From assembly GCA_964348455.1 (NCBI GenBank), contig CAYGCQ010000001.1:58450-122449 (forward strand): a DNA stretch of 64,000 nucleotides, read 5' to 3'. Below, one piece after another: positions 16,191-63,817 of this stretch; the first letter of the stretch is position 1; each line of letters starts with the position of its first letter. A model generated the notes under the pieces. That model had not been told where the DNA came from. It searched no databases and saw only the letters and a list, made by a program, of their open reading frames with translations. The position numbers were made by a program, and so were the translations under genes. The stretch comes from an uncultured Pseudomonadales bacterium. Its GTDB lineage: Bacteria; Patescibacteriota; Microgenomatia; UBA1400; MFAQ01.

Positions 16191-18008
16191 ATGCGTTACT
16201 TCTCTCAGATTATTCCCTCAATAGCCAAATTTATTTCACGATTTAGAGTAGAGATTATTTTGTTGCTTTTAATTGTTCCTGCAATCAGCGACATATTTAA
16301 GCCTGGTTTTATGCCTATGCACGATGATCTTCAAGTTCTTCGCTTGGTAGAAGTTCATAAATGTGTATTGGACGGCCAGATTCCTTGCCGTTGGGTGCCG
16401 GATGCTGGTTATGGTTATGGCTACCCTCTTATGGAGTTCTATCCACCTATGCCTTACTACCCGATGGAGCTCATGGTACTACTCGGTTCCGACTTCTTCT
16501 TACCGGTCAAGGTCATGTTTGCCTTAGCCTTCTTACTTAGTGGTCTGGGTATGTATCTATTAGCCAAGGAGTTCTTTGGTAAATGGGGAGGTGTTATAGC
16601 CGCCGTTCTGTATGTCTATTCTCCGTATCACTCTGTAGATGTATATGTTCGAGGCGCCATGAACGAAGCCTGGGGGATGGTCTGGTTCCCCTTTGTCCTT
16701 CTCTACATTTATAGATTAATACATAGTCATTCCCGACCTGATCGGGAATCTATAAAAATAAAATCCCAAAATACAATTTCTCGCGACTTTATCTACTTAA
16801 GCATCGCCCTCGCTCTCCAGCTAACCTCACACAACGTTATGACTTTAGTTTTTGCCCCCACGGCTATTATCTGGGCATTTTTCTGGATGTGGAAAGCAGA
16901 CAAATTTGAAAGGTTCAAAGAGCTCTTTTTTGCCGGGTTACTTGCCTTAGGACTTTCAGCTTTCTTCTTTATTCCCGTAGTCTTGGAGCAGAAATTTGTT
17001 CACGTAGACACCATGACCATCGGTTATTTCAATTACTTAGCTCACTTTGCTGATTTAAATCAACTATTCTGGACCCGTTTCTGGGGTTATGGCGGCTCTA
17101 CTTGGGGTCCGGAAGATGGGATGTCTTTCTCGATTGGTCACATTCAGTGGATCGGTGCCATACTCGCTAGCACAGTAGCTATTATGAGACTTTATCGACT
17201 CAAGTTTTACAAAAATGTATCTGTCATTGCGAGTCTCGTAGCCGAGCCGAAGCAATCTAAAAGTACAAAATCATCGGAAATAAATATGATGATTCTTCTG
17301 ATGATTTCTTTCGGCTTATTTTACGCTTTTCTCACTCATAGTCGATCAAACTTTATCTGGGAAAGGCTGTCAGTTCTTCAGTTTGCTCAGTTTCCTTGGC
17401 GACTCGTGGCATTGATTGTCTTTTACTTCTCTTTTGCTGCCGGATATGTGGGTACTATTACTATTCCTAAGTTTTTTAAGGCTATTATTTTTCCCATATT
17501 AATCATTGGCATTATTTTATTTAACATTCCCTTCTTCCGGTTTGAGCGTCATGTAAGGGTAACGATTCAAGAAAAAATGTCTGGACTTCAATGGGAGAAT
17601 CAGGTTACGGGTGGTATCTTCGACTATCTTCCTAGGACGGCTACCAGACCACCCGGCGCCCCTGCCTTCACTATTCCTCAATACATCGAAGGCAATGGTG
17701 GAATCTTGAACTATCGATCAGGGTCAAACTGGATTGCCTTTGATGCTTTCGTTTCTACTTCCTCAGCCAAAGTCATGCTTCCCATGTTTACATTCCAAGG
17801 TTTAAAAACAAAAGTCGATTCCCAGAGAGTGCTAACTGAAATGGATCCGGATCTAGGAAGAATAATCGTCAACCTGGATCAAGGACTTCATCATGTAGAA
17901 GCCAAAATTGGCTACACGAAAGTAAGGCTCTTGTCAGACTTTTTAACTTTTATTTCTCTTGCCATATTAATAAAGCTAATCTACCGTGATCGAAAACACA
18001 CCACCTGA
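16191..18008 (+). CDS. large polytopic membrane protein (possible GT-C glycosyltransferase) carrying two in-frame hairpin repeats
   Basis: 605 aa with at least 12 TM helices. Repeats at 16726-16754 (read as HSRPDRESI) and 17223-17259 (SVIASLVAEPKQS) keep the frame open. Confidence 0.5.
   Translation: MRYFSQIIPSIAKFISRFRVEIILLLLIVPAISDIFKPGFMPMHDDLQVLRLVEVHKCVLDGQIPCRWVPDAGYGYGYPLMEFYPPMPYYPMELMVLLGSDFFLPVKVMFALAFLLSGLGMYLLAKEFFGKWGGVIAAVLYVYSPYHSVDVYVRGAMNEAWGMVWFPFVLLYIYRLIHSHSRPDRESIKIKSQNTISRDFIYLSIALALQLTSHNVMTLVFAPTAIIWAFFWMWKADKFERFKELFFAGLLALGLSAFFFIPVVLEQKFVHVDTMTIGYFNYLAHFADLNQLFWTRFWGYGGSTWGPEDGMSFSIGHIQWIGAILASTVAIMRLYRLKFYKNVSVIASLVAEPKQSKSTKSSEINMMILLMISFGLFYAFLTHSRSNFIWERLSVLQFAQFPWRLVALIVFYFSFAAGYVGTITIPKFFKAIIFPILIIGIILFNIPFFRFERHVRVTIQEKMSGLQWENQVTGGIFDYLPRTATRPPGAPAFTIPQYIEGNGGILNYRSGSNWIAFDAFVSTSSAKVMLPMFTFQGLKTKVDSQRVLTEMDPDLGRIIVNLDQGLHHVEAKIGYTKVRLLSDFLTFISLAILIKLIYRDRKHTT
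16726..16754 (+). repeat. canonical 29-mer hairpin repeat inside CDS, frame b (HSRPDRESI)
   Basis: gtcattcccgacctgatcgggaatctata, exact. Confidence 0.9.
17223..17259 (+). repeat. hairpin repeat type D (GTCATTGCGAG...CCGAAGCAATCTA) inside CDS, in-frame
   Basis: gtcattgcgagtctcgtagccgagccgaagcaatcta. Confidence 0.85.
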
Positions 18009-19464
18009 CGCTCCATCGATACTGGAAGTCCAAGAGGTAAAGAGGCGTAGTGTCTCAGGTGTTCTCGCGCTCATTTCTCGTACTTTTATAATCCAAATTA
18101 TTTCCTTTGTTGCCACTCTTGCTCTTACTATTTTTCTCGATCCCAATACCTATGGTATTTTTTATCTTGTTTCTTCCGTCGTAAACTTCTTGGCCTATTT
18201 CTCGGACGTCGGTTTAGCCGCAGCTCTCATACAGAAAAAAGAAGCTATAACAGACGAAGATCTCTCTACTACTTTTACTATTCAGCAACTTTTGGTACTT
18301 AGTCTTCTGACCTTGCTTTTTATTCTGTCACCTTTTATTGGAAGTCAGTATCACATAGATCAATCGGGAATGTATCTACTCTACGCCATGGGAGTTTCGC
18401 TTTTTCTGAGTTCTCTAAAGACTATCCCTTCCATAATGCTGGAGAGAGAAATCAAGTTTAACAAACTCATTCTTCCTCAGGTTCTGGAAACTCTTACCTT
18501 TAACGGAATCGCCGTTTTTCTTGCTTGGCAAGGTTTTGGTGTCACCGCTTTTACTTTTGCAGTGCTCGGTAGGGGAGTTGTGGGGTTGATCGCTATGTAC
18601 ATTGTTTACCCCTGGAAACCCAAGATTGGAGTCAATCGAACTTCGCTCAAACACCTGCTAAAGTTTGGCCTTCCTTATCAGGTAAATACTTTTTTGGCAG
18701 TTTTAAAGGATGATGGTATGACCATTATTCTCACCAAGATTATCGGTACTCAGGGTTTGGGCTACATAGGCTGGGCGTCTCGTTGGGCGGGCCTACCACT
18801 TAGAATTGTCATGGATAACCTTACCAAGGTTTCCTTCCCGACTTTTGCTCGCTTGCAGCACGACAAAGAAAGACTGGCTAAGGCAGTAGAAATCAGCCTT
18901 AAGTACATGTGTCTACTGGCTTTCCCTATTCTGGTCGGTATGGGGTTTTTGGCTATTCCCATGACGCACTTAATTCCAAGATACGTAAAATGGCTACCCG
19001 CCATTATTCCTCTTTATCTTTATCTCTACAACTCAGCTTGGGCTAGTATCAGTACCAGTCTGACAAATTTACTGAATGCTACCGGTCATATAAAATCCAC
19101 TTTTAAACTAATGCTTATGTGGACAGGTCTTACCTGGGCAATCATGCCGATACTATCCATCAAGTTTGGTTATATGGGTGTTGCTTATGCCACAGCTTTG
19201 ATCGCCACATCCTCAATAGTTACAATTATTATGGCCAAGAAGTACGTCAGCTTTAGTATGATTCGAATCATAAAAACTCCAGTGCTCTCTTTACTGCCTA
19301 TGATTTTGTGGTTGTATTTATCGGTTGGATCAATTGGTTCATATTCTGCTTTGATAGCTATCCTTATTAGTTCAGCCATTATTTACTTTGGATCCATATT
19401 TATTTTGGAAGGTAAAACATTTTTTACCGATACGCTTAGTTACTTTAAGATAAAACATGCTTAA
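17986..19464 (+). CDS. Wzx-like oligosaccharide flippase (MOP superfamily polysaccharide biosynthesis protein)
   Basis: At least 12 TM helices. The N-terminus ISRTFIIQIISFVATLALTIFLDPNTYGIFYLVSSVVNFLAYFSDVGLAAALIQ is typical of Wzx/RfbX-family proteins. Confidence 0.65.
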   Translation: MIENTPPDAPSILEVQEVKRRSVSGVLALISRTFIIQIISFVATLALTIFLDPNTYGIFYLVSSVVNFLAYFSDVGLAAALIQKKEAITDEDLSTTFTIQQLLVLSLLTLLFILSPFIGSQYHIDQSGMYLLYAMGVSLFLSSLKTIPSIMLEREIKFNKLILPQVLETLTFNGIAVFLAWQGFGVTAFTFAVLGRGVVGLIAMYIVYPWKPKIGVNRTSLKHLLKFGLPYQVNTFLAVLKDDGMTIILTKIIGTQGLGYIGWASRWAGLPLRIVMDNLTKVSFPTFARLQHDKERLAKAVEISLKYMCLLAFPILVGMGFLAIPMTHLIPRYVKWLPAIIPLYLYLYNSAWASISTSLTNLLNATGHIKSTFKLMLMWTGLTWAIMPILSIKFGYMGVAYATALIATSSIVTIIMAKKYVSFSMIRIIKTPVLSLLPMILWLYLSVGSIGSYSALIAILISSAIIYFGSIFILEGKTFFTDTLSYFKIKHA

Positions 19465-22400
19465 AAAATTTCTTATAATCATCACCTTTATTTTTCTTAG
19501 CCTTCCGGGGAAAACTCTTGCTTTTAAGCCAGAAACTTTTGTCACTTTTGCCAATCCTGTTCGTGGTCCTGAAAATTGGCAAGCCGGCAAGCAAGACCCT
19601 CTGGCTCTTCCTATGCTTCAGTATGCCGAGTCCACATCCTCTGCTTATCCAATTACCTGGTTGCTTCGGTATGATGCAGTCAGAGATGCGACGATGTCTG
19701 CTTTTTTCAATAATCTCTCGACATCTGACAAGACTCAGACTCTAGGAGCATTCCTAGAAATTACACCTAAGTTATCTGCCGAAGCCAACGTCTCGTATCC
19801 AAAGGGCACCACTCCATTCAATGCCAATCGCATTTTTCTTTCCGGCTACTCGATAGATAATCGAGAAAATCTTATAGATACTTACATGGCCGCCTTCTTT
19901 GTTGAGTACGGCTACTATCCCAAGTCTGTCTCAGCCTGGAACCTTGATAGTTATAGTTTGCAGTACCTCCAATCCAGGTACTCAGTCCTAACAGCCATGA
20001 ACTGCGACGATCAGTACACCACTGATAACTATCGCATCTGGGGTGGTTATTTAGGTAGTCCCTACTTCCCGGATAAGAACAACTCCCTTATTCCGGCTAA
20101 ATCAGCTGACGAGCGTGTGAACTTGGCCATGGTACGCTGGGCTCAGAGAGACCTATTTAATTTTTACGGATATCGTTCTGAGTCTTCTTACTCAGTACAA
20201 GTAAATGATTATTTAGCTCAGGGACAAAACACAAAGTACTTTGAGAAACTCTTGGGATTGTATTCTCAGAGAAATTTAAATGAATTCACTTATATTAATA
20301 TTGGTTTGGAAAACGATTACGGTCTCATTGAATATAAAGCTGAGATAAAAAATGTTTTCAAAGCTCTTAAAGTAAACGAAGAAAAATTCAATCTCCACTT
20401 TATTTCGTTGTCCGATTTTGGTGATTGGTTCAAAGCTCGATACCCCGAAAGCACCCCGGCCTACTACTACGAGACCACAGATCCTTTGGAAAGTAGAGAA
20501 GGTAAGGTGTTTTGGTACCAGAGTCCTTGGTATCGCATCGGTTTCAAATCGGAAAAGGGGATTACTAAGATTATAGATTTCCGTGTGTACAATCGGGAAA
20601 TATATGAAGACTACTTTGCCACCCCGAATCAAGAACTTAGTCTCTACCAGGAAATTCCTGCCGTCATAGACTCGGTAAAGACACCAGGAACAGAAGTCAT
20701 TTTAGATCTGGATTTGGAAAAAGCTGAATTAGTCCACTCAAAGCAGTGGGATTACTGGCAAATTGCTTTTAAGTCGGGAGATGAAATTGTGACGCTAGAA
20801 CCGGAAAGAATTGTTTTTTCAGGTGTTTCTGCTCCGACGATTTCATCCAAAGATATCAAAGTAATCTCTAAGAAAAAAACAACCACTTGGGAATTAACTC
20901 CATACACTCCCTTTAAAAACTCTTCAAAGTTTACTTGGTTATTCTGGCTTCTTGCATCCCTAATAGTTGTCATCCTCGCGAAAGCGGGGATCCATCCCAA
21001 ATCACGACCTCCAACCTCGTCATTGCGAGATTCGGTAGACCGAACCGAAGCAATCTCCTCCACCAAACAATCCGTAATCTCTAAAAAAAATTCTTCTAAT
21101 GCCACAAAATCATCTGTCATCCTCGCGAAAGAGTTTACACTCCTGGGCGGGGGGATCCATCCGAACACTCGCACTCTTATAATTAGCATCTTAATCTCTC
21201 TCCTCGCCACCCTTACCGTCTTCCGTAATGGCCTTCTCTACCCCTTTGGCATGGGTTTCTGGGGTCCCAACGGACACGACGCTATCTTCCATCTCTCGCT
21301 CATAGAAAAATTCGCAGCCAGCCCCTTTAGTTTTTTACACCCCCAGATAGCCGGAGAGAGAATTGCCAACTATCATTTCATTTTTGATTTTCTGTCGGGG
21401 TTAGTCGTTAAGCTCTTTGGCATCTCTTCTCTGGATCTTTACTTTCGAGTCTTTCCTGTCGCTGCCGGTATCACTATAGTCTTACTCTTAAACAAGTTAC
21501 TAATATCTTGGAAATATAATCGCCAAGAAAGATTACTGGCAATCTTTCTAGCATTTCTGGCCGGTTCATTTGGCTTTATCCCAAAGCTTCTTACCGGCCA
21601 AAATTTTTTTACCGGAGAGTCCGCTTTCTGGGCCAACCAATCGGTCTCTATTTTTCTCAACCCCCCCTACGCCCTCTCCCTCATCCTCCTCCTAATTTTT
21701 CTTAACCGTATCACTAGTCATTCCCGACCTGAGCGGGTCGCTGATACTCGAAGGGGTAAATCAATACAAGACAGTTCAAAATTCTCGCCTGTCATCCCTG
21801 CAAAGGCAGGAATCCATCAAATTATTCCTCTAATTATTCTTGGTGCCCTCCTTGCCCAAACAAAAATCTACGCATTTATCCTACTTCTAGGAGCATTGTT
21901 ATTCTCCAAAAAATACAAACTGTTCTTCGGCGTTCTTGTTCTCGGAGTATTAATATCTTTGCCATTTACCGCCTTCGGTGGACCGTCACCCTTTCTCTTT
22001 TCTCCACTTTGGTTTCCCAGAAGTCTTTTTGCTTCATTTGATCGTTTTTACTGGCCCCAAATAGTTCAGGCCTGGCAAGCGTACGAAGCCTCAGGAAACT
22101 TTATTAAGCTAGCCTTGGTAAATTTATTTGCCTTAACAGTCTTTTTGATAGGAAACTTGGGCATGCGTTTTCTCGGCCTTATCCGAATTGCAAAAACAAA
22201 GGCGCCTAATGATTCCGAGACAATTGTTCGCTGGGTTATCTTTTTTGGACTAATCATTCCATTACTTTTCGTTCAGAACATCAATCCCTGGAACACGATC
22301 CAGTTCATGTACTACTCACTTTTTTTCTTAGCCATCTTCACCGCAAAATATATAAGCTCTCTTTTCACAGAAAAAACTGTCATCCTCGCGAATGAGGGAC

Positions 22401-22972
22401 GCTGGTCCCCGAAGGGGGAGATCCACAAACTGCCTCACCTTGTCATTCCGGGCTTGACCCGGAATCTATACAAATCTTCCATATTTTTAGTATTCATTCT
22501 TTTTGCCACCCTCACCTCCATTGGCACTCTCAAGGATTACATTGGTTTCTTCTCTTCTTCCCGTATCGGGTACACAGAACTATTGGCCCTGGATAAATTC
22601 CGAGACCAACCCAGAGGTATTGTCCTAGCTCCTTTTTACAGTCAGCCAAAGGCTTCAACCATCTACGCCCCCAAACCACTTTACTCATACGTATCCACAG
22701 CTTACATCTCCGCCATTTCAGGTCAACCGGAGTTCCTAGCCGATACTATCAATTTAGACATTACCGGCTTCGATTATACTGATCGCGCTAGGGACGTTCA
22801 GCGCTTTTACATTACCGAAGATAAACTGTGGGCAAACGACTTTTTATCTAATAATCATATTGAATACGTCTACGAAACCCCACTCCAAAAAATCAAGCTA
22901 GCTCCGGAAGATCTCAAATTAAAAAAAATCTTTGACTCTGGTGAAATAAATGTCTACGTTCGAGCACTGTAA
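19457..22972 (+). CDS. 1171-aa ORF: N-terminal secreted domain (~500 aa) plus C-terminal polytopic membrane domain, bridged by seven in-frame hairpin repeats (possibly two genes)
   Basis: Signal-like N-terminus MLKKFLIIITFIFLSLPGKTLA. Repeats at 20969-21162, 21717-21818 and 22379-22470. The downstream half has more than 10 TM helices. No stop in 3.5 kb. Confidence 0.45.
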   Translation: MLKKFLIIITFIFLSLPGKTLAFKPETFVTFANPVRGPENWQAGKQDPLALPMLQYAESTSSAYPITWLLRYDAVRDATMSAFFNNLSTSDKTQTLGAFLEITPKLSAEANVSYPKGTTPFNANRIFLSGYSIDNRENLIDTYMAAFFVEYGYYPKSVSAWNLDSYSLQYLQSRYSVLTAMNCDDQYTTDNYRIWGGYLGSPYFPDKNNSLIPAKSADERVNLAMVRWAQRDLFNFYGYRSESSYSVQVNDYLAQGQNTKYFEKLLGLYSQRNLNEFTYINIGLENDYGLIEYKAEIKNVFKALKVNEEKFNLHFISLSDFGDWFKARYPESTPAYYYETTDPLESREGKVFWYQSPWYRIGFKSEKGITKIIDFRVYNREIYEDYFATPNQELSLYQEIPAVIDSVKTPGTEVILDLDLEKAELVHSKQWDYWQIAFKSGDEIVTLEPERIVFSGVSAPTISSKDIKVISKKKTTTWELTPYTPFKNSSKFTWLFWLLASLIVVILAKAGIHPKSRPPTSSLRDSVDRTEAISSTKQSVISKKNSSNATKSSVILAKEFTLLGGGIHPNTRTLIISILISLLATLTVFRNGLLYPFGMGFWGPNGHDAIFHLSLIEKFAASPFSFLHPQIAGERIANYHFIFDFLSGLVVKLFGISSLDLYFRVFPVAAGITIVLLLNKLLISWKYNRQERLLAIFLAFLAGSFGFIPKLLTGQNFFTGESAFWANQSVSIFLNPPYALSLILLLIFLNRITSHSRPERVADTRRGKSIQDSSKFSPVIPAKAGIHQIIPLIILGALLAQTKIYAFILLLGALLFSKKYKLFFGVLVLGVLISLPFTAFGGPSPFLFSPLWFPRSLFASFDRFYWPQIVQAWQAYEASGNFIKLALVNLFALTVFLIGNLGMRFLGLIRIAKTKAPNDSETIVRWVIFFGLIIPLLFVQNINPWNTIQFMYYSLFFLAIFTAKYISSLFTEKTVILANEGRWSPKGEIHKLPHLVIPGLTRNLYKSSIFLVFILFATLTSIGTLKDYIGFFSSSRIGYTELLALDKFRDQPRGIVLAPFYSQPKASTIYAPKPLYSYVSTAYISAISGQPEFLADTINLDITGFDYTDRARDVQRFYITEDKLWANDFLSNNHIEYVYETPLQKIKLAPEDLKLKKIFDSGEINVYVRAL
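20969..20998 (+). repeat. hairpin repeat type E (GTCATCCTCGCGAAAGCGGGGATCCATCCC), in-frame (VILAKAGIHP)
   Basis: Stem CCTCGCG/CGCGGGG with a T-G pair that is a G-U wobble only on the + strand RNA. Confidence 0.9.
21019..21058 (+). repeat. hairpin repeat type D (GTCATTGCGAGATTCGGTagaccgaACCGAAGCAATCTCC), in-frame
   Basis: Nested stems ATTGC/GCAAT and TTCGGT/ACCGAA. Confidence 0.9.
21116..21162 (+). repeat. type E repeat with 15-nt insertion in the loop, in-frame
   Basis: gtcatcctcgcgaaag[agtttacactcctgg]gcggggggatccatcc. Confidence 0.85.
21717..21773 (+). repeat. long hairpin-repeat variant (GTCATTCCCGACCTGAGCGGGtcgctgatactcgaaggggtaaatca), in-frame
   Basis: Same architecture as 61439-61496. 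Confidence 0.85.
21791..21818 (+). repeat. hairpin repeat type F (GTCATCCCTGCAAAGGCAGGAATCCATC), in-frame (VIPAKAGIHQ)
   Basis: Stem CCTGC/GCAGG. Confidence 0.9.
22379..22429 (+). repeat. long type E variant (GTCATCCTCGCGAATGAGGGacgctggtccccgaagggggagatcca), in-frame
   Basis: Contains the inner GGTCCCCGAAGGGGGA hairpin shared with the 2364, 11691 and 51816 units. Confidence 0.85.
22442..22470 (+). repeat. type B repeat GTCATTCCGGGCTTGACCCGGAATCTATA, in-frame (VIPGLTRNLYK)
   Basis: Exact match to other type B copies. Confidence 0.9.
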
Positions 22973-23004
22973 CAAGAAGTTTCGTATCGATTACAATTAA
23001 ATAC

Positions 23005-23922
23005 ATGGCAAAAACAAAAATATCAGCGATAGTAAACACTAGGAACGAAGCAGATAATGTATTTGATTGCTTAAAGTCACTTAGTTTTTGTGATGAAATA
23101 GTCGTCGTTGATATGGAGTCAGAAGATAATACGAAAGAAATTGCAAAGCAATTTACAGACCATATATTTGATCATCGCAAAACTGGCTATGTAGAACCTG
23201 CCAGGAATTTCGCTATAAAAAAAGCAGTCGGAGATTGGCTTTTAATAGTAGATGCTGACGAGCGAATCCCAAAAACTTTAGCTGTCAAATTAATCGAGAT
23301 AGCCAATAACGGCGAAGTAGACTTTGTTAGAATTCCCAGAAAAAATTTAGTCTTTGGTCAGTGGCTTCAACATTCTAGATGGTGGCCGGACTACAACATT
23401 CGTTTCTTCAAGAGGGGTACGGTAGAATGGCAAGATGAAATCCACTCTGTTCCTATTACTTATGGAAACGGAATAAATTTAGATGCCGAGTCGTCACTAG
23501 CCATAGAGCATCACCATTACCGCAGTATTGACGAGTACTTCATCAGGGCTCTCAGATACTCAAACCAACAAGCCAAAGAGCTCATTGAGTCCGGATACAA
23601 GTTCGAACCTGCCGATATTATCAAAAAACCCATGGGAGAATTTCTCTCCCGTTTCTTCGCCGGTGAAGGTTACAAAGATGGTCTTCATGGCCTCATTGTA
23701 GCTATGCTTCAGTTTTTCTCAATTCTGCTTGTTTACCTTAAGGTTTGGCAGTTCGAGGGCCGAAAACCCGTCAAAGGTAGCGAATTTACCAAAGTTTGGC
23801 AAAAAGCTTTCATGGAGAAGTTCAAAGAACTTCGATACTGGTATCTCACAGTCCTCATCCAGAACTCTAGATCTAAGACCGAAGCCTTTTTCCTCAAGCT
23901 CCGCCGCCGTCTCCAAAAATAA
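23005..23922 (+). CDS. GT2 glycosyltransferase
   Basis: ISAIVNTRNEADNV, IVVVDMESEDNT and LLIVDADERIP motifs. Paralogous to 25222-26022 and 52102-52983. Confidence 0.7.
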   Translation: MAKTKISAIVNTRNEADNVFDCLKSLSFCDEIVVVDMESEDNTKEIAKQFTDHIFDHRKTGYVEPARNFAIKKAVGDWLLIVDADERIPKTLAVKLIEIANNGEVDFVRIPRKNLVFGQWLQHSRWWPDYNIRFFKRGTVEWQDEIHSVPITYGNGINLDAESSLAIEHHHYRSIDEYFIRALRYSNQQAKELIESGYKFEPADIIKKPMGEFLSRFFAGEGYKDGLHGLIVAMLQFFSILLVYLKVWQFEGRKPVKGSEFTKVWQKAFMEKFKELRYWYLTVLIQNSRSKTEAFFLKLRRRLQK

Positions 23923-23939
23923 ATTGATATACTGAATAC

Positions 23940-24239
23940 ATGATCACAGATCAGGAATTTTCACAACTCAGGACAATAATTAAAGAGGAAATTAATCTCG
24001 AAGTAAGAAAGGTTGTGGAAGATGTATTAGAGGAGAAGCTGGAACAGAAGCTGGAACAGAAGCTGGAACAGAAGCTAGATCAGAAACTGGACGAAAAACT
24101 CAAACCTATACATAGAAAGCTCAACAAGCTAGAAAAAGATTTGCAAGCAACAAATCACTTCTTTGATAACGAATACTTAGGTCACGAAAGAAGAATTACC
24201 AGAATCGAAACTCACCTAAATATTTCAAATCGTCTCTAA
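23940..24239 (+). CDS. hypothetical coiled-coil protein with tandem KLEQ heptad-like repeats
   Basis: EEKLEQKLEQKLEQKLDQKLDEKL is encoded by direct 12-nt DNA repeats (ctggaacagaag x3-4). Confidence 0.45.
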   Translation: MITDQEFSQLRTIIKEEINLEVRKVVEDVLEEKLEQKLEQKLEQKLDQKLDEKLKPIHRKLNKLEKDLQATNHFFDNEYLGHERRITRIETHLNISNRL

Positions 24240-24289
24240 AATTGTTCTTTTTTTGGAAATCAAGCACAAATAGACTATAATTGAGCTAG

Positions 24290-25219
24290 ATGAAAATAGC
24301 TTTTATTACAGTTAACTTTCACAGCGACGAAGATACTTACGAAGTCGTGTCCCAGCTAGAGAAAAATATTCTCCCAAAAGGAGTCGAGATGACGGTGTAC
24401 TGCGTAGATAACTCCGTATCCGACAAACTAAAAAGAAATCTTTCCAAATACAAACACGCTGTCTATGTTAAATCACCCGGTAATGTTGGTTTTGCTGCGG
24501 GAAATAACTTAGGGTATATTCAAGCTATTCGTGACAAAGCCGATATCATCGTCTTGATAAATAATGATACGGTAGTTCCAACCGACCTGGTTAAAAATAT
24601 TTTAAATTCCCCAATCACAGATCCAAAAGTTGGAGTTGTTGGTGGATTAATATATTTCGCTAAGGGGTTTGAATTCCAATCGAACTACAAGAAATCAGAT
24701 CTTGGAAAGGTAATCTGGTACGCAGGAGGTAAACACGACTGGAAGAATGTCTACGCTAGTCATGTCGGCGTGGATGAGGTAAACAGGGGGCAGTACAAAG
24801 GCATCAGGGATACTGATTTTGTAACTGGATGTCTGTTCATTGCTCGTCGGAATGTTCTTGAAGAAGTTGGTCTACTAGATGAACGTTACTGCTTGTATTA
24901 CGAGGACTCTGATTTGTGTGCCAGGATAAAAAGAGCCGGCTATCGAATCGTCATTGATACAAGTATTGAGATAGGTCACAAAGTCGCACAAAGTTCCGGT
25001 ATCGGTTCTCCCCTGAATGATTATTTTTTAACCAGAAACCGTTTACTTTTCGGCACCACTTATGCCTCACCGAGAACCAAGTTTGCCCTCATCAGGGAAG
25101 CTATAAAAAAATTATTTATCGGTACCCCCGCTCAGAAAATTGCCATCAGAGATTTTTTTACTAAAAATTTTGGTTGGGGTAGTTGGAACAAGAAAGTCTC
25201 TGTTCCCGGAAAACAATAA
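24290..25219 (+). CDS. GT2 glycosyltransferase (rhamnosyltransferase/WbbL-like)
   Basis: IAFITVNFHSDEDT, YCVDNSVSD, GNVGFAAGNN and VLINNDTVV motifs. Confidence 0.7.
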   Translation: MKIAFITVNFHSDEDTYEVVSQLEKNILPKGVEMTVYCVDNSVSDKLKRNLSKYKHAVYVKSPGNVGFAAGNNLGYIQAIRDKADIIVLINNDTVVPTDLVKNILNSPITDPKVGVVGGLIYFAKGFEFQSNYKKSDLGKVIWYAGGKHDWKNVYASHVGVDEVNRGQYKGIRDTDFVTGCLFIARRNVLEEVGLLDERYCLYYEDSDLCARIKRAGYRIVIDTSIEIGHKVAQSSGIGSPLNDYFLTRNRLLFGTTYASPRTKFALIREAIKKLFIGTPAQKIAIRDFFTKNFGWGSWNKKVSVPGKQ

Positions 25220-25221
25220 AT

Positions 25222-27144: not shown

Positions 27145-28878
27145 ATGAGTTTTTTTAAAAAAAACTTTTGGATCATTATTCTATCTACACTGTTAATAGC
27201 CACATCAGCTATTAAAGTTGCCGAGGTCTACAACGGCAACTTCCCATTTACCACAGACCAAGGGAGAGACATGGTGGATATACGGCACATGGTCGTTACA
27301 CACACTCCTAGACTTGTGGGTCCGACAACCAGTATCAACGGAGTCCTCTTGGGTCCATTCTGGTACTACTTCAATCTAATCCCCTTTATAGCCGGCGGCG
27401 GAGATCCTTCATACATCGTTTACTGGCAGATTCTTTGGTACCAAATCTCAGTCATTACTCTTTGGTTAGTTCTGAAAAGAAAGAATGCAAACTTAGCCGG
27501 CATAATTTCCCTCATCTTACTGCTTATGCCCACAGGTTTTAACGCGGCACGGTATTTCTGGAACGCAAACTCCATGCCCATTTTTACTGCCTTATATTTT
27601 GCAGCTCTCATCTGGGCTCTATCCCCCGATGTCATTCCTGCGAAGGCAGGAATCCACAAACACCAAGCCGCATCACGTGTCATTCCGGGTTTGACCCGGA
27701 ATCTATACAAATCGCTCAACTTTAAATTATTTACCCTAGGCCTTATCTCTGGTCTTGCCATGCAAGTCGAAGCCGCCTTTGGCATTCTTTTATTTCCTTT
27801 CGCCTTTATATATTTGCTATATTGTCATCCCCGATCCAGGAGTCGCCTGGGAGACCCTGATCGGGAATCTATGCAAATGAAACTCAAAAAAACAATCCCC
27901 CTTATCTTTGGTTTTGGCTTAACACTCCTCCCTCAAATCTTGTTTGAACTCAAGCACGGCTTCATTATGACAAAGATCTTGATTAATGAGATTATAGGAA
28001 GAGGGGGTATGTTGGGCGAAAAAATTAATTTTTCAGAAAGATTAATTCAAAGAAAAGAGCATCTTCTAGATCTGATCCAGCACTCCAGCCACCTCCCTCC
28101 AAATACTATTCTTGGCCTCTTTATCCTCGCCCTCATCGTCTATATCATTAGTCATTCAAGATCTAATCGGGCATCTAAAAAAAATAATACAAATTCAAAT
28201 TATTTAGATATTTGGACCCTCTCTTTCTTCTTCATTCTCTTCTCAGCTATCTTCTACCTTCTTTTTCCACAGAAGCTAAAGATCTGGTACACCTTGGGTT
28301 TTTCGATTCCGCTAGCAATTTTTATCGGCAGTTTCTTTAATTACTTGTTTGAGCGTAAGCTTTTTATTTTCAAGCTTATGGCTATCGGACTGCTCATCAT
28401 GACAGTTTTCTACTCCTTAAAATCTCAAGTTGACTACACCAGAGATGTAGCCTCTAAGGTCTCGGACGATAGAAGTAATATGAAGAATGAGTTGTCTGCC
28501 ATTGATTGGGTTTATGAGAATGCAGCGGGTAGGGGATTTAATGTCTACAGCTATCTTCCTTCGGTCTACGACTTTCCCTACAATCATTTATTCTGGTGGT
28601 ATGGAAGCTCTAAATATGGCTACGAACCAGCAGAAACAGCTTATTTGCCTGGCCAGCCGGAGTACATCAGGGATGTTGATAAGCTCTGGACCAAGAAAAA
28701 GCCGGTAGACCTGGAATATCCAATCACCTTTCTTATCATCGAAGAAGACTTCGATATGCCGGAAAGAACCGAAGCTTGGCTGGGAAATTTTGCTCATCTA
28801 TGCATAGTTAAGAAAGAAGTGTTTCCGTGGCATGCTCAGGTAAGGATGCTAACGTCAAATTGTCTTCCAGATAATTAA
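27145..28878 (+). CDS. GT-C fold membrane glycosyltransferase (GDEGRD-subfamily paralog) carrying three in-frame hairpin repeats
   Basis: The loop TTDQGRDMVDIRHMV...GPTTSINGVLLGPFWYY is paralogous to the 11830 gene. Repeats lie at 27631-27660, 27679-27709 and 27824-27872. Confidence 0.6.
   Translation: MSFFKKNFWIIILSTLLIATSAIKVAEVYNGNFPFTTDQGRDMVDIRHMVVTHTPRLVGPTTSINGVLLGPFWYYFNLIPFIAGGGDPSYIVYWQILWYQISVITLWLVLKRKNANLAGIISLILLLMPTGFNAARYFWNANSMPIFTALYFAALIWALSPDVIPAKAGIHKHQAASRVIPGLTRNLYKSLNFKLFTLGLISGLAMQVEAAFGILLFPFAFIYLLYCHPRSRSRLGDPDRESMQMKLKKTIPLIFGFGLTLLPQILFELKHGFIMTKILINEIIGRGGMLGEKINFSERLIQRKEHLLDLIQHSSHLPPNTILGLFILALIVYIISHSRSNRASKKNNTNSNYLDIWTLSFFFILFSAIFYLLFPQKLKIWYTLGFSIPLAIFIGSFFNYLFERKLFIFKLMAIGLLIMTVFYSLKSQVDYTRDVASKVSDDRSNMKNELSAIDWVYENAAGRGFNVYSYLPSVYDFPYNHLFWWYGSSKYGYEPAETAYLPGQPEYIRDVDKLWTKKKPVDLEYPITFLIIEEDFDMPERTEAWLGNFAHLCIVKKEVFPWHAQVRMLTSNCLPDN
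27631..27660 (+). repeat. type F repeat GTCATTCCTGCGAAGGCAGGAATCCAC, in-frame (VIPAKAGIH)
   Basis: Stem CCTGC/GCAGG, loop gaag. Confidence 0.9.
27679..27709 (+). repeat. type B repeat GTCATTCCGGGTTTGACCCGGAATCTATACA, in-frame (VIPGLTRNLYK)
   Basis: Direct match. Confidence 0.9.
27824..27872 (+). repeat. long variant GTCATCCCCGATCcaggagtcgcctgggagaccctGATCGGGAATCTAT, in-frame, followed by gcaaATG
   Basis: Same architecture as 11577-11632 and the inverted copy at 47101-47143. Confidence 0.85.
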
Positions 28879-42062: not shown

Positions 42063-42083
42063 CGCATATAATTACTAAGCAAC

Positions 42084-42920
42084 ATGAAAAAACTAATATT
42101 TTTTGTCTCGGCAGTTTTGATGTTGGCTTTCTGGCCTCTCTCTTTCCTATTTGCCAATCAGGACTCCTGGGTACCCTTTTTCGTAGCTCTCACAATACTT
42201 CTGGTAGATTGGCTTCTTTATCTAAATAAGTTTAAATACCACTACTTCCTATATCTCCTCTTCCCTCTCATCCATCCTGCGTTGCTCCTCTTCCCAATTA
42301 TTTCACTTATTTTTATTGTTATTTCGACCGAGGGTAAGCCCAGGTGGAGAAATCTCACACTAGCAATATTCACCTCGCTCCTAATTATTGTCTCTTTTTT
42401 TTCCTACAAAACCTTCTATGCTTACTCCATCTTCACTCCAGATCCACTAGCTTTTGATACCCTAAACAAAAAGATTTCTCTAATCCCAAATCGCAATCTA
42501 GCCAAAGTTTTCATGAACAAAACTACAATTTTTCAGGATAAATTTAAATCCAATATTTTTATCTCTTTAGACCCAAACAACTACTTTTTTGGACTTCACC
42601 CACAAGAGTTGGGAAACAACCAGAACTTAACAAAATTTCCATATCTAGCCATTTTTCCCTTTCTGATAGGTTTGTACTATTTATTGGACAGTAAGTCCAA
42701 GCATTGGATAATATCTATCTTTGTTGCCATAGCATCTTCCATCGCCTTTATAAACAATCAGGATCGATTCGACATCCTACTTTACTTACCCATAGTCCTC
42801 ATTTGTCTTAATGGGCTGAAAAAGATCTTCGATTCATCATCTTTTAATTTCTCCATTTTTTCTGCCTTTTTCATCCCCATTTCAATTATCGAACTAGCTA
42901 GGCTAATTATATTTAGATAA
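42084..42920 (+). CDS. hypothetical polytopic membrane protein
   Basis: 278 aa with about 8 TM helices, interleaved between PMT paralogs. Confidence 0.45.
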   Translation: MKKLIFFVSAVLMLAFWPLSFLFANQDSWVPFFVALTILLVDWLLYLNKFKYHYFLYLLFPLIHPALLLFPIISLIFIVISTEGKPRWRNLTLAIFTSLLIIVSFFSYKTFYAYSIFTPDPLAFDTLNKKISLIPNRNLAKVFMNKTTIFQDKFKSNIFISLDPNNYFFGLHPQELGNNQNLTKFPYLAIFPFLIGLYYLLDSKSKHWIISIFVAIASSIAFINNQDRFDILLYLPIVLICLNGLKKIFDSSSFNFSIFSAFFIPISIIELARLIIFR

Positions 42921-51815: not shown

Positions 51816-52088
51816 GTCATTCCTGCGCAGGAATGACGCTGGTACCCGAAGGGGGAAATCCATCAAATCAATTTCATCCCCTTTCGTCATTGCGAGTTTC
51901 GTAACCGATCCCAGAGTCGCCTCAGGAGACACCGAAGCAATCTCACTCCACCCTTGTCATTCTGAACTTGATTCAGAATCCATCCCCTCATCTCACACAA
52001 ACAATCTCACTCCACACACCACACCACACGTCATGGGGTTAATCCGCCGTGGCGGAAGTTTTGGTATTCCGAACCGAAGCAATCTATA
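51816..52088 (+). repeat. intergenic array of 4 hairpin-repeat variants with CA-rich spacers
   Basis: Starts with the perfect 22-nt palindrome GTCATTCCTGCGCAGGAATGAC (51816-51837), extended by gctggtacccgaagggggaaatcca. Type D long unit at 51886-51946. GTCATTCTGAACTTGATTCAGAATCCATCCC at 51956-51986. A GTCATGGGGTTAATCCGCCGTGGCGGAAG... unit ending AAGCAATCTATAAT at about 52029-52088. Confidence 0.9.
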
Positions 52089-55552: not shown

Positions 55553-55559
55553 TTCCTAA

Positions 55560-59621: not shown

Positions 59622-59652
59622 ATTATAGACTACTTGTTATATTAGTGCGGAG

Positions 59653-60927: not shown

Positions 60928-60997
60928 CTTCCTTGACAAAGACCCATAATAGTAGTATATTCAAGACAATCGCATCTTAAAAAAGAAGGAGGCCATC

Positions 60998-61240: not shown

Positions 61241-61320
61241 GAGTCCTTTTTTTTGTCAATAAAGTTATTAGCTAACAATCTCGCACCCATAAACAACAGC
61301 TATTCACTCCACCCGATACT

Positions 61321-61736
61321 GTCATCCCGACCGTAGGGGCCGATGGTACCCGAAGGGGTAGATCTCACCCCACTGTCATTCTGAACTTGATTCAGAATCC
61401 ATCCACCATCTTTCATCATTGCGAGGTACCACACCCTAGTCATTCCCGACCTGAGTGGGCCGCTGGTACCCGAAGGGGTGAATCTATATAAATTATTCCA
61501 CCCTCTCGTGATCCCTACCAAATGAAATGAGTGGAGGAATCTCTCTCCACTGTCATTCTGAACTTGATTCAGAATCCATCCCCACACCACCACTCACAAC
61601 TCAACCCGTCATGGAGTTTATCCGCCGTGGCGGAAGTTTCGGCAACCGATCCCAGAGTCGCCTCAGGAGACACCGAAGCAATCTCACACCCTCTACCAAA
61701 CCATTCGTCATTCCCGCGAAGGCGGGAATCCATCCC
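61321..61736 (+). repeat. largest intergenic array: 7 heterogeneous hairpin-repeat units
   Basis: Units at 61321-61371, 61375-61405 (GTCATTCTGAACTTGATTCAGAATCC), 61414-61437 (degenerate GCGAGG type), 61439-61496, 61552-61583 (second TGAA/TTCA unit), 61608-61687 (GTCATGGAGTTTATCCGCCGTGGCGGAAG...ACCGAAGCAATCTCAC) and 61707-61736 (GTCATTCCCGCGAAGGCGGGAATCCATCCC). Confidence 0.9.
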
Positions 61737-61783
61737 ATTTATTCCAATTTTAGAGTTTTAGATTTTTTGAGTTTTTCAGCTAG

Positions 61784-62629
61784 TTGTTAATATATAATCT
61801 CCTCATGCCCACAAAGGCAAAGAAAAAAACATTCAAAGTCGGCAAAGTTGACACCAGTCTACTTTCTGTTATTGTTCCGACTTACAACTGTAAAACCATT
61901 TTCAAAGACCTATCTTTCATCAAACTCCATTTAGATATCCTAAATCGTCCCTACGAAATCATCTGCGTTGTCGACGGTCTAGTCTCTCCCAGAGATAAAA
62001 CTTATAAGCATGCAAAAAAATTCAGAGCAGACAAAACCAAAATATATTTTTACAAAAACAATAAAGGCAAGGGCTACGCCATCCGCTACGGCATGGCCAG
62101 GGCCAAAGGTGGGCTGATCGCCTTTATAGATGCAGGGGGTGATCTCCATGCAAAAGGTATTTCTCTAGCGCTTGAGCATATGAAGTGGTATGACGCGGAC
62201 ATTATAATAGGCAGCAAGCGTCACAAGGCTAGTAAAGTCGAGTATCCATTACAGAGAAAAATTCTTTCTTTCATTGTGCAGAAGGCTACCAAATTCATGT
62301 TCGGATTAAACGTTTCGGATACTCAAACAGGACTTAAACTTTTCAAAAGAAATGTGTTGGTAAAGGTTTTGCCTCGTTTGATCGTGAAGCGCTGGGCTTT
62401 CGACCTCGAAGTCCTTACAGTTGCTAACCATCTTGGGTTTAAAAGAATATTTGAGTCACCTGTCGAAATTAGTCACAATTTTATGAGCAATATCGGACTC
62501 TCCTCTGTCCAGAACTTTGCGATGGATTATCTTGCCATTCTTTACCGTACTTACATTCTTCGTTACTATGATGATGGAGGATCAGACCACTGGGAGGGAG
62601 ACCCAAATCTCACCCTCCGCTACAAATAA
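61784..62629 (+). CDS. GT2 glycosyltransferase
   Basis: LSVIVPTYNCKTIF, ICVVDGLVSP, AFIDAGGDL and QTGLKLFKR motifs. Alternative start MPTKAKKK at 61805. Confidence 0.65.
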   Translation: MLIYNLLMPTKAKKKTFKVGKVDTSLLSVIVPTYNCKTIFKDLSFIKLHLDILNRPYEIICVVDGLVSPRDKTYKHAKKFRADKTKIYFYKNNKGKGYAIRYGMARAKGGLIAFIDAGGDLHAKGISLALEHMKWYDADIIIGSKRHKASKVEYPLQRKILSFIVQKATKFMFGLNVSDTQTGLKLFKRNVLVKVLPRLIVKRWAFDLEVLTVANHLGFKRIFESPVEISHNFMSNIGLSSVQNFAMDYLAILYRTYILRYYDDGGSDHWEGDPNLTLRYK

Positions 62630-62644
62630 ATATTCTAAAATCTT

Positions 62645-62677
62645 GTCATTCCTGCGAAGGCAGGAATCCATCAAATG
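62645..62677 (+). repeat. type F repeat GTCATTCCTGCGAAGGCAGGAATCCATCAAATG running into the start codon of the next gene
   Basis: ATG 62675 lies 3 nt after the repeat body. Confidence 0.9.
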
Positions 62678-63817
62678 AATTCCACAAAAAAAACACAAGC
62701 CACTCTGCACCAAAAACTTCCCAAAGTCTCCATCATCATTGTCGACTACAAAAAGAAAAATCCATATTTAGTCGAGTGTTTGGACGCCATCCAAAATCAA
62801 ACCTACAAAAATTTCGAAATCATTCTCGTCTGTGACTATCCAGTTACATTGTCATCCTCGCGAAGGCGTGGATCCATCCCCTCACTCCGCCAAAAATCCT
62901 ACGGTCACTACGTCGGTCCGGCCGAAAAGCGAGATGTTGGTGCCAAGATGGCAAAGGGGGAAATTCTGGCCTTTATCGATGACGATGCTTTTCCATCACC
63001 TGACTGGTTAGCTAAAATAGTTCCTCATTTAAAAAACAAAGATATCGCAGGTGTGGGCGGTCCAGGAATCACCCCGACCAATGTATCCTGGCAGGAGCAG
63101 TCTTCCGGGTGGGCATCTGCCTCACCTGCTGGAGCTGGGAACTACACCTATCGATTTCTTCCCGGAAAAATGCAGTTTGTCGACGACTACCCCTCTATGA
63201 ATCTTGCAGTTCGCAAAACAGACTTCGATAGAGTCGGTGGTTTTGACTCGAATTTCTGGCCAGGCGAGGACACTAAGCTTTGCTTGGATCTTACACACAA
63301 GTTGGGCAAGAAAATAATTTATGAGCCAAAAGCTATTGTTTATCATCATAGACGCCCCATCTGGAAAGGTCACTTAATGCAAAACGGTAACTTCGGTCTT
63401 CATCGAGGATTTTTTGCTCGTATTCTTCCGGAAACATCCCTTAAGCTCATTTATTTCGCGCCATCATTTTTACTTCTCGGTCTTATTTATCTTTTATTTT
63501 TATCAAAATTAAATCAACCACCTTTTAACTATCTGCACTCATATGGCTGGTTGGCACTCAAACTATATTTCCTCCTCCTCACCCTCAACTCTCTCTGGAT
63601 TTTCTCCATCATTGCGAGGAGTGAAACGACGTGGCAATCCAGCACATCAACTTCCTTACACTCTGTCATTCCTGGCTTGACCAGGAATCCATCAAATAAA
63701 GTTCAATCAGCTATCCTCCAATCCCTCATTTCCATCCCCGTCATCTTTGTCACCCATCTTTGGTACGGCACCCGTTTCCTTCAAGGCTTCCTCTTTACCG
63801 AAAAATTATCCCGATAG
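62675..63817 (+). CDS. GT2 glycosyltransferase carrying three in-frame hairpin repeats
   Basis: VSIIIVDYKKKN, FIDDDAFPSPDW and GGPGITP GT2 motifs. Repeats at 62851-62881 (VTLSSSRRRGSIP), 63607-63640 and 63665-63694 (VIPGLTRNPSNK). Confidence 0.7.
   Translation: MNSTKKTQATLHQKLPKVSIIIVDYKKKNPYLVECLDAIQNQTYKNFEIILVCDYPVTLSSSRRRGSIPSLRQKSYGHYVGPAEKRDVGAKMAKGEILAFIDDDAFPSPDWLAKIVPHLKNKDIAGVGGPGITPTNVSWQEQSSGWASASPAGAGNYTYRFLPGKMQFVDDYPSMNLAVRKTDFDRVGGFDSNFWPGEDTKLCLDLTHKLGKKIIYEPKAIVYHHRRPIWKGHLMQNGNFGLHRGFFARILPETSLKLIYFAPSFLLLGLIYLLFLSKLNQPPFNYLHSYGWLALKLYFLLLTLNSLWIFSIIARSETTWQSSTSTSLHSVIPGLTRNPSNKVQSAILQSLISIPVIFVTHLWYGTRFLQGFLFTEKLSR
62851..62881 (+). repeat. type E repeat GTCATCCTCGCGAAGGCGTGGATCCATCCCC, in-frame, splitting the GT2 catalytic domain
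   Basis: Inserted between the conserved CDYP and the DxD region. Confidence 0.9.
63607..63640 (+). repeat. type C repeat (CATCATTGCGAGGAGTGAAACGACGTGGCAATCC), in-frame
   Basis: Same variant as 1313-1348. Confidence 0.85.
63665..63694 (+). repeat. type B-like repeat GTCATTCCTGGCTTGACCAGGAATCCATCA, in-frame
   Basis: Compensatory change: stem CCTGG/CCAGG instead of CCGGG/CCCGG with an identical loop. Confidence 0.9.

Follow-up and report, generated by a model that had tools for sequence, protein, structure and literature searches.

Ssn-Related Hairpin Repeats Read in Frame within Envelope Glycosyltransferase Genes of a Collierbacteria-Like Genome

Introduction

How does a short palindromic repeat come to lie many times over inside genes that stay open across it? 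This question is raised by a 64,000-nucleotide (nt) stretch of contig CAYGCQ010000001.1 (GenBank assembly GCA_964348455.1, positions 58,450 to 122,449 of the forward strand), which was analyzed as a whole and is referred to here as the window, with its first base as position 1. An original prediction, made from the letters of this DNA, held that about 25 copies of a repeat are inserted in frame within nine open reading frames (ORFs) without interrupting them, in a manner resembling the Rickettsia palindromic elements (RPEs). We find 26 clear copies and one degenerate copy in the nine ORFs named, and comparison with orthologues shows the copies as in-frame indels. The repeats themselves are, judging by their sequence, Ssn-related hairpin motifs (SRMs) of the NTS/dRS3 type, not a new family, and the window contains a putative cognate nuclease gene.

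The window is 92% coding and represents a cell-envelope glycosylation region: it contains genes for rhamnose-pathway enzymes, many GT2s, and YfhO/DUF2079-type membrane proteins, together with PMT_2-type GT-C genes arranged in tandem and one flippase-like gene. The hosts of the repeats had been described as mostly GT-C and GT2 enzymes, and domain scans agree, returning PMT_2-type GT-C proteins, a GT2, and other polytopic membrane proteins. The best named homologues belong to Candidatus Collierbacteria, in line with the suggestion that the genome resembles the Candidate Phyla Radiation (CPR).

Results and Discussion

Repeat Copies Are Open in the Frame of Their Host Genes

The core of the SRM is 24-25 nt long and consists of GTCAT, an 8-bp stem, a 4-5-nt loop, the return stem, and ATC, while compound forms of up to ~60 nt hold one or two additional hairpins within the same GTCAT...ATC ends. 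The dominant 25-mer, GTCATTCCCGACCTGATCGGGAATC, occurs 14 times in the window at ≤3 mismatches, where dinucleotide-preserving shuffles expect 0.00, and its exact form occurs 12 times, with five of these copies in genes. An energy-based scan of each GTCAT gave 86 candidates, mainly noise, and the final list was curated by eye. It comprises ~58-60 copies in 64 kb (~32 intergenic and 26 genic, with a degenerate 27th genic copy at 63607-63640), and all but 5 of the ~58-60 lie on the + strand.

All 26 genic copies are open in the frame of their host (P ≤ 2.6e-5 if at most 2/3 of frames are open). Frame 0 (VIP/VIL...) is read in 17 copies, frame 1 (HSRP/HSGL...) in six, and frame 2 in two, with the remaining copy in reverse orientation. 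The recurring peptide cassettes that had been proposed are present, namely VIPDLIGNLYK, VIPGLTRNLYK, VILAKAGIHP, VIPAKAGIH(K/Q), and SHSRPDRESI. The accompanying claim that the third frame is never used does not stand, as it is read at 21019 (peptide SLRDSVDRTEAI) and at 62851; both are stem/loop variants without TGA, and the exclusion therefore holds solely for TGA-containing loop variants.

The genic copies are listed below, with gaps given relative to two loci used for comparison: L119, a syntenic locus in the related genome GCA_964357975.1 with the gene order of window positions 39.6-54 kb, and L121, a locus of a related genome that is syntenic to window positions 9.3-30 kb. A2, A3, and A5 denote the orthologue alignments of ORFs 49963, 19457, and 62675, with ORFs named by their first base.

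2356-2411: degenerate compound SRM, N-terminal region of ORF 2341-3222
2425-2449, + strand: SRM, N-terminal region of ORF 2341-3222; frame 0, VIPDLIGNLFK
16726-16750, + strand: SRM, ORF 16191-18008 (PMT_2-like); frame 1, SHSRPDRESI
17223-17257, + strand: compound SRM, ORF 16191-18008; frame 0, VIASLVAEPKQS
20969-20992 (frame 0), 21019-21055 (frame 2), and 21116-21157 (frame 0), + strand: three SRMs, loop 1 of ORF 19457-22972
21717-21762 (frame 1) and 21791-21814 (frame 0), + strand: two SRMs, loop 2 of ORF 19457-22972; A3 columns 765-810
22379-22423 and 22442-22466 (both frame 0), + strand: two SRMs, loop 3 of ORF 19457-22972; A3 columns 990-1035
27631-27654 and 27679-27703, + strand: two SRMs, ORF 27145-28878; both frame 0, VIPAKAGIHKHQAASRVIPGLTRNLYKS; 19-aa in-frame gap in L121
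27824-27869, + strand: nested/compound SRM, ORF 27145-28878; frame 1, RSRLGDPDRESM; 8-aa gap in L121
28151-28175, + strand: degenerate SRM, ORF 27145-28878; frame 1, SHSRSNRAS
40359-40383, + strand: SRM after codon 10, ORF 40329-42062; frame 0, VIPDLIGNPSP
46683-46707, + strand: SRM, ORF 46287-48245; frame 0, VIPDQIGNLYK; 16-codon gap in L119
46863-46888, + strand: SRM variant, ORF 46287-48245; frame 0, VIPTAVEGS
47050-47074, + strand: SRM, ORF 46287-48245; frame 1, RHSGLDPESI; in one loop with 47101-47143
47101-47143, reverse orientation (first base 47143): SRM, ORF 46287-48245; RFLIRVSQSLRSGMT
47536-47560, + strand: SRM, ORF 46287-48245; frame 1, SHSRPDRESIQMNS; 21-codon gap in L119
48614-48638, + strand: SRM, ORF 48242-49966; frame 0, VIPDLIGNLYKS; 23-codon gap in L119, 77% identity elsewhere
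49975-49999, + strand: SRM after codon 4, ORF 49963-51813; frame 0, VIPGLTRNLYK
50359-50382, + strand: SRM, ORF 49963-51813; frame 0, VILAKAGIHPD; 19-codon gap in L119
50719-50743, + strand: SRM, ORF 49963-51813; frame 0, VIPDLIGNLYKS; 20-codon gap in L119
62851-62874, + strand: SRM in the GT2 catalytic domain, ORF 62675-63817; frame 2, SSSRRRGSIP
63607-63640, + strand: degenerate compound SRM, C-terminal loop of ORF 62675-63817; IIARSETTWQS
63665-63689, + strand: SRM, C-terminal loop of ORF 62675-63817; frame 0, VIPGLTRNPS

In-frame reading predicts junction peptides of the form ...NNVIPDLIGNLYKSNS... and ...HSRPDRESIQMNSIK.... We note that the true start of ORF 48242 is the ATG at 48242, versus a mechanical TTG start at 48068, and that the SRM at 13876-13900 is intergenic, with the real start at ATG 13912 and a mechanical TTG start at 13888 that reads through the repeat.

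The Genic Copies Are Derived In-Frame Insertions

The central claim, that of in-frame copies in uninterrupted genes, is borne out by alignments A2, A3, and A5 and by the codon comparison with L119 and L121, all of which show indels. An orthologue alignment had been proposed as a check, and it yields clean in-frame indels: most orthologues lack the segments, and the flanks to either side remain 60-80% identical and in the same frame. Neither ancestral conserved sequence nor ORFs split at the repeats were observed, although either had been named as an outcome that would speak against insertion. In ORFs 40329, 46287, 48242, and 49963, the window SRMs face in-frame gaps of 12-23 codons in L119, again with 60-80% flanking identity. 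At the N-terminus of ORF 49963, the event is resolved at the nucleotide level as a 36-nt insert, the window reading ATG AAA [TCAACT GTCATTCCGGGCTTGACCCGGAATC TATAC] AAA TTT against ATG AAA AAA CAT in L119. The product of ORF 40329 begins with MTK, followed by ~18 additional aa and KFMFW, and its L119 orthologue begins with MTKQK....

Database protein P0001 is an exact match to the product of ORF 49963-51813, and the closest homologue of the host protein outside the source assemblies is 75% identical. In A2, most orthologues are 543-547 aa long and have short loops at the three insert sites of the window, and other close orthologues carry SRM peptides of their own in the same two loops (VIPDLIGNP, VIPGLTRNP, VIPAKAGIHP, VIARSERDVAI, HSGLDPESI). 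The 1171-aa product of ORF 19457-22972 has full-length orthologues of 1050-1065 aa, and its seven SRMs occupy three loops that are gapped in most of them (A3; loop 1 corresponds to columns 513-590). ORFs 16191 and 27145 are continuous in L121; at site 16726, the orthologue continues across with a different SRM-like peptide, and at site 46863, L119 has a different SRM (VILAKAGIHQ). In A5, SSSRRRGSIP is a 7-aa indel common only to P0243 and P0244, and the C-terminal SRM loop of the same protein is missing from most orthologues, with others having their own SRMs there (VIARSETTWQSH, VIPDLSG...). Overall, SRM peptides are restricted to the closest 40-60 of 120 orthologues, and carriers are 26-29 aa longer at the median; the inserts are thus derived, not ancestral, and the alignments show them to be lineage-restricted among the sequences compared.

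The least certain genic case is ORF 2341-3222 with its two N-terminal copies, because the orthologue comparison covered the other eight ORFs. In this ORF, no in-frame ATG, GTG, or TTG occurs between the SRM and the signal-peptide-like segment.

Six tandem PMT_2-type GT-C paralogues with 25-29% mutual identity occupy positions 40329-51813, in an array broken by one small membrane-protein gene (42084-42920), and this order is kept in L119. As had been anticipated, the insertion-free paralogues 42921 and 44621 are shorter, at 567 and 565 aa versus 652, 574, and 616 aa.

The Repeats Belong to the Ssn-Related Motifs and Accompany an Ssn-Like Nuclease Gene

Full-text searching with GTCATTCC, like a search for dRS3, pointed to one study (Chenal et al., Nat Commun 2025, PMC11893778), where the Neisseria dRS3/NTS repeat is given as CGTCATTCCCGCGMAVGCGGGAATCYRG and its relatives are named Ssn-related motifs. 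According to this study, NTS hairpins are bound and cut by SsnA, a small GIY-YIG nuclease with a single domain, only as forward-strand single-stranded DNA (ssDNA), and the RNA form of NTS is not bound; cutting depends most on the three bases 5' of the palindrome, and binding depends most on the C that follows it. The same study reports that ssn genes are typically repeat-flanked and insertion sequence (IS)-like, that SsnA cuts the integration of NTS-bearing transforming DNA ~5-fold in Neisseria meningitidis, and that in this species NTS cluster around membrane and surface genes, with 2% of them within genes (PMC11893778). CPR bacteria are not mentioned therein.

Among the 15 distinct simple SRM variants of the window, the GTC head (the 3 nt directly 5' of the palindrome, which are non-palindromic and orient the element) is invariant in all 15, and the C directly 3' of the palindrome (...AT-C) is present in 14. 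For the copy at 61706-61733, the match to the Neisseria NTS consensus extends to 27 of 28 positions. We assign the window repeats to the SRM type because of this match and because the critical GTC head and 3' C are shared, such that sequence and architecture together establish the identity of the family.

The stems occur as TCCCGA/TCGGGA, TCCGGG/CCCGGA, CCTCGC/GCGGGG, TCCTGC/GCAGGA, and TCTGAA/TTCAGA variants. In the same 15 variants, stem pairs 1, 2, and 4 are constant or nearly so, and compensatory double changes occur at positions 3, 5, 6, 7, and 8 (five of eight); as both sides change at these five positions, it is the structure that is conserved. Folding as ssDNA yields -7.6 to -13 kcal/mol (z = -4 to -5), and a 3' tail, TATAMAAAT.. 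or CATCC.., is conserved as well. Rfam contains no family matching the SRMs at gathering thresholds, and they are therefore not a described RNA family. Other identities were considered and rejected: tRNA-linked elements, as the window is without tRNA; CRISPR or integron attC sites, whose architecture does not match; and terminators, as no T-tract follows the stems.

Nested copies at 5650-5696, 11577-11622, 27824-27869, and 47101-47143 carry a second palindromic module (..AGGAGTCGCYTGGGAGAC..) within the loop of a standard SRM stem, an arrangement that suggests one hairpin element inserted into the loop of another.

The candidate nuclease gene lies in a repeat-flanked cassette that is present in two copies:

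5916-6345, + strand: ssn cassette copy 1, 430 nt, 100% identical to 9253-9682
5916-5940 (+), 5966-6253, 6277-6301 (-), and up to 6345 (-): parts of copy 1, namely SRM, GIY-YIG ORF, inverted SRM, and partial SRM
5966-6253, + strand: ssn-like gene, 95-aa single-domain GIY-YIG protein with a YVYIL...YIGVT motif
9253-9682, + strand: ssn cassette copy 2, with ORF 9303-9590; 3.3 kb from copy 1

The identity between the copies starts exactly at GTCAT and ends at ATGAC, 430 nt later, and the SRM hairpin is identical to the terminal hairpins of the cassette. The 95-aa protein matches Pfam PF01541 over residues 4-77 (E = 4e-15) and has no further domain. Homologues with 50-64% identity lie 20-55 nt from an identical 25-mer on contigs of Dehalococcoidaceae, Armatimonadota, and UBP14, and the 25-mer adjoins Ssn homologues in loci L011, L027, L060, and L089. 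L121 also has a GIY-YIG gene at the position syntenic to cassette copy 2, the L121 stretch compared ending short of the site of copy 1. This makes the 95-aa protein an Ssn-like candidate for the cognate nuclease of the window SRMs.

The pair of cassettes looks like a recently moved or converted IS-like unit. In L121, the public 111-aa call for the ssn gene (108-443) begins inside the upstream SRM (MSSSRRRGSI...). Together with the start at 13888, this call illustrates an annotation hazard, in that the open frames of SRMs fuse or extend ORFs.

Placement of the Inserts and Probable Filtering by Selection

The AlphaFold model of the ORF 49963 product has an overall predicted local distance difference test score (pLDDT) of 73 and a predicted template modeling score (pTM) of 0.79. 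In this model, insert 1 (N-terminus) has a pLDDT of <50, as has insert 2 (residues 126-153, between two transmembrane (TM) helices), and insert 3 scores ~58. Alignments and the predicted structure thus place the inserts at N-termini and within the loops of greatest variability in these membrane proteins, mostly in low-confidence regions.

The density of SRMs is 0.44/kb in genes versus 6.2/kb in intergenic DNA, a 14-fold difference, and a lower genic density is as expected if most genic insertions are lost. Besides the open frame of all genic copies, a filter on translation is suggested by the tails of frame-0 genic copies, which are TATAC or TATAT (read as L-Y-K); the stop-making TATAA is found in none of seven genic versus four of eight intergenic tails (P = 0.08).

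Proposed Explanation and Its Alternatives

We consider it probable that the genic copies are selfish SRM hairpins linked to Ssn, which selection has filtered down to translatable, tolerated sites. On this model, SRM hairpins would be non-autonomous selfish repeats that multiply via an Ssn-linked ssDNA step, and many new copies would land in genes because the genome is 92% coding, with little spacer. Gene-breaking copies would be purged, leaving survivors that are a multiple of three bases in length, lack a stop in the host frame, and occupy a permissive site, that is, the N-terminus before the first TM helix or a variable inter-TM loop of a GT-C or GT2 envelope glycosyltransferase. The survivors would then be translated as passenger loop peptides of 7-25 residues that are neutral or nearly so. 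While the indel status of the copies and the makeup of the cassette are established by sequence and architecture, we infer their translation, mobilization by Ssn, and selective neutrality. Finally, since the same loops hold different SRM variants across orthologues and paralogues, insertion and turnover would be recurrent. The contrast of VIPTAVEGS with VILAKAGIHQ in L119, the tandem intergenic stacks, and the nested hairpins argue that turnover is continuing, possibly favored by SRM-into-SRM targeting.

We note, however, that several observations weigh against this explanation. Random insertion followed by a stop filter alone does not explain the orientation or frame bias: 25 of the 26 genic SRMs point the same way as their gene (P = 3.7e-4, where stops alone predict 2/3), and frame 0 is favored over frame 1 by 17:6 (P = 0.017). 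As nearly all genes lie on one strand, the polarity of transcription is inseparable from that of replication in this window. The SSSRRRGSIP insertion is conserved in three orthologues, which may indicate more than neutrality. With the exception of the one N-terminal case, no target-site duplication or nucleotide-level empty site is resolved against L119 or L121, because the flanks of the loops are too diverged. The published degenerate SRM string matches three window copies, with the dominant variant (CCCGA-CCTGA-TCGGG) falling outside it, and a sequence search of the PDB with the 95-aa protein returned only distant UPF0213 GIY-YIG proteins (E = 3e-4). Ssn is not known to have transposition activity.

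Taking these points into account, one may ask whether the genic SRMs are kept because they are useful, either as Ssn sites through which recombination or transformation of the envelope-glycosylation genes is modulated, or as diversifying recombination hotspots. The effect of SsnA on integration of NTS-bearing DNA (lowered ~5-fold) and the position of Neisseria NTS near membrane and surface genes (PMC11893778) would fit such a role, as would the concentration of window SRMs in a glycosylation/envelope gene cluster, the repeated hits to the same loops in orthologues and paralogues, the insertion conserved across three orthologues, and a strong orientation bias in a system whose nuclease cuts one strand only (PMC11893778). 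We nevertheless judge it unlikely, since a 14-fold depletion in coding relative to intergenic DNA is what deleterious passengers would show, the insert sites are the most variable loops, where repeat hits may reflect tolerance only, and most orthologues function without any insert. Less likely than this useful-site role, and improbable in our view, is that the hairpins act as RNA, by affecting mRNA stability, by pausing translation for membrane insertion, or by attenuation. Co-orientation with transcription (25 of 26 genic and nearly all intergenic SRMs) and the location of inserts just before or after TM helices agree with an RNA-level role, and three stem variants contain T-G wobble pairs in the given strand; one C-A mismatch occurs as well. 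Against it, SsnA ignores the RNA form of NTS (PMC11893778), the stems lack a following T-tract, Rfam gave no match, the family is already established as acting at the level of DNA, and with almost all genes on one strand, co-orientation with transcription is inseparable from co-orientation with replication.

The remaining alternatives concern the genes themselves. That the ORFs are not single genes, but are split at the repeats, pseudogenes, or fusions due to gene calling or assembly, is worth considering because hairpin repeats can mislead assemblers and because two open frames permit accidental ORF fusion, as with the spurious TTG start at 13888. This is very improbable, as full-length orthologues from many independent metagenome-assembled genomes (MAGs) span the insert sites collinearly and in the same frame, gene order is kept with L119 and L121, and conserved catalytic and structural motifs flank the inserts. 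Scarcely credible, finally, is the idea that ancestral coding sequence, or convergence on a peptide motif, accounts for the segments. Paralogues and orthologues do have the peptides at corresponding loop positions, but the genic DNA is identical to that of intergenic copies (12 exact 25-mers, five of them genic), one element is read in three frames and in reverse, a given loop holds different stem variants from one genome to another, and distant orthologues lack the segments.

Beyond the preferred explanation of selfish, selection-filtered hairpins, it is possible, though we hold this only tentatively, that the ssn cassette and the hairpins form a mobile system driven by the GIY-YIG single-strand nuclease, with a minimal unit of ~36 nt that has evolved to be coding-competent. 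This unit would be TCAnnT + GTCAT-hairpin-ATC + TATAC, and its two open frames, stop-free tails, and benign peptides would allow spread within the ORFs of spacer-poor genomes. If true, such a system would represent a transposition or copy mechanism without described precedent among bacterial IS families, and the in-frame CPR copies would record insertion events from which the target, polarity, and unit of SRM mobility can be read.

Distribution in Other Genomes and Relationship to Known Systems

The exact 25-mer is found in >117 genome contigs, which include CPR groups, Dehalococcoidia, Bacteroidales, Desulfobacterota-type lineages, Planctomycetota, Verrucomicrobiota, Gammaproteobacteria, and others. 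Judged by a spanning-ORF criterion, 111 of its 121 occurrences in 117 loci of other genomes fall between genes. The genic share in the window is ~45% of SRMs versus the 2% reported for N. meningitidis (PMC11893778).

One locus stands apart: in L074, on a contig labeled as uncultured Pseudomonadales, an exact 25-mer with a TATACAAAT tail lies at ~3233 inside a very long ORF, which is open for >500 codons on either side, and an Ssn homologue is found 2 kb away. This is either a genic in-frame SRM beyond CPR or a mis-binned contig.

The window repeats share with the Neisseria NTS/SRM-SsnA system an oriented hairpin with a (C)GTC head, an ATTCC... palindrome, and a C after the palindrome, as well as a small GIY-YIG gene in an IS-like SRM-ssn-SRM layout, spacer clusters near envelope genes, and a spread across many phyla. 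They differ in their CPR (Collierbacteria-like) host, in the large share of copies that are genic and read in frame, in a dominant variant outside the published string, and in their conserved 3' tail. The likeness to RPEs drawn in the original prediction holds as an analogy. RPEs are palindromic selfish repeats of ~150 bp, nearly half of them in frame in ORFs (Ogata et al. 2000, summarized in PMC10969869), and as in the window, they lie in frame in unrelated genes and yield recurrent peptides at fold-compatible positions, with nearly half of the copies genic. The window SRMs are set apart by size (24-60 nt versus ~150 bp, the RPE range being ~100-150 bp), host lineage, and probably sequence, and also by an adjacent nuclease gene, where RPEs have no known cognate enzyme, by hosts that are almost solely polytopic membrane glycosyltransferases, and by stacking and nesting in the same loops.

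A second comparison is with REP/BIME elements and their RAYT (TnpA-REP) enzymes, and with IS200/IS605, which likewise have short hairpins with an orienting non-palindromic head that are recognized as ssDNA; REP/BIME elements also form tandem spacer clusters, and their enzyme gene is repeat-flanked. Unlike in REP/RAYT systems, where the enzyme is an HUH/Y1 transposase and the REPs are essentially extragenic, the enzyme here is of the GIY-YIG type, and neither scans of 31 window ORFs nor the gene lists of L119 and L121 revealed a transposase domain (Y1_Tnp or other). Bacterial MITEs (miniature transposable elements with inverted repeats; ERIC, Correia, QMITE1, and Anabaena MITEs; PMC10969869) are also small non-autonomous repeats with in-frame fusions, which are occasional in MITEs. 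The window SRMs are far shorter, have a much higher in-frame genic share, and have no terminal inverted repeats with target-site duplication resolved.

Our literature searches found no report of in-frame palindromic repeats in CPR, of GIY-YIG hairpin repeats in Patescibacteria, of SRM/Ssn in CPR, or of SRMs within genes at this frequency, and neither an SsnA/SRM follow-up nor any work on peptide motifs such as VIPAKAGI and VIPDLIGN was found. What is known is thus the SRM family and Ssn, and what appears to be new is the occurrence of SRM/Ssn in CPR and of apparently translated in-frame genic SRMs at this frequency. This links a repeat family that has a characterized ssDNA nuclease (Ssn/NTS) to RPE-like selfish DNA translated in genes, and extends both to CPR. 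Dozens of dated, orthologue-anchored insertions provide a handle on SRM multiplication and on the role of Ssn beyond Neisseria. Furthermore, a measurable share of the length variation of envelope glycosyltransferases in compact CPR genomes is repeat-derived, which matters for annotation, orthology clustering, structure prediction, and the inference of lineage-specific loops.

Intergenic Clusters and Further Observations in the Window

Intergenic copies form the following clusters:

5650-5860, + strand: intergenic SRM cluster upstream of ssn copy 1
9017-9216, + strand: intergenic SRM cluster upstream of ssn copy 2
11577-11822, + strand: four intergenic SRMs in a cluster, the last of which provides the ATG of gene 11830 from its tail
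51816-52088, + strand: intergenic cluster of four SRMs between ORF 49963-51813 and the GT2 gene at 52102
61321-61733, + strand: intergenic cluster of six SRMs, including the NTS-like copy 61706-61733

The L119 orthologues of the genes flanking the cluster at 51816-52088 overlap by 4 nt and have no spacer.

The SRM 3' tail (..AAATGAAYTC..) provides the ATG of genes 11830 and 62675 (at 11823-11835 and 62669-62680), the proteins of which both start with MNS, and the same tail is read within ORF 46287 as ...QMNS.... The TATAMAAAT tail lies ~10-20 nt upstream of the start codons at 1401, 26076, and 5966 and resembles a -10 box.

Of 32 2-kb windows, 30 have a negative GC skew, and the cumulative value drops steadily. 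Despite this negative skew, the + strand carries ~85% of genes and nearly all SRMs, which is opposite to the usual arrangement of a G-rich leading strand with co-oriented genes. The sources considered for the skew are a C-rich repeat composition together with membrane-protein codons, or a true replication polarity.

Two further repeats were noted. At 24034-24105, within a stretch without a long ORF (23922-24290), a 12-nt unit (AGAAGCTGGAAC) is repeated in tandem in ~6 copies; this is probably a small repetitive or coiled-coil ORF, because L121 has a 96-aa gene call at the syntenic place. A second short repeat, unrelated to the SRM, consists of four tandem 8-nt units (TTTTGAG/TTTTAGAG) at 9676-9732 and 61737-61793, and both of its copies directly adjoin an SRM cluster.

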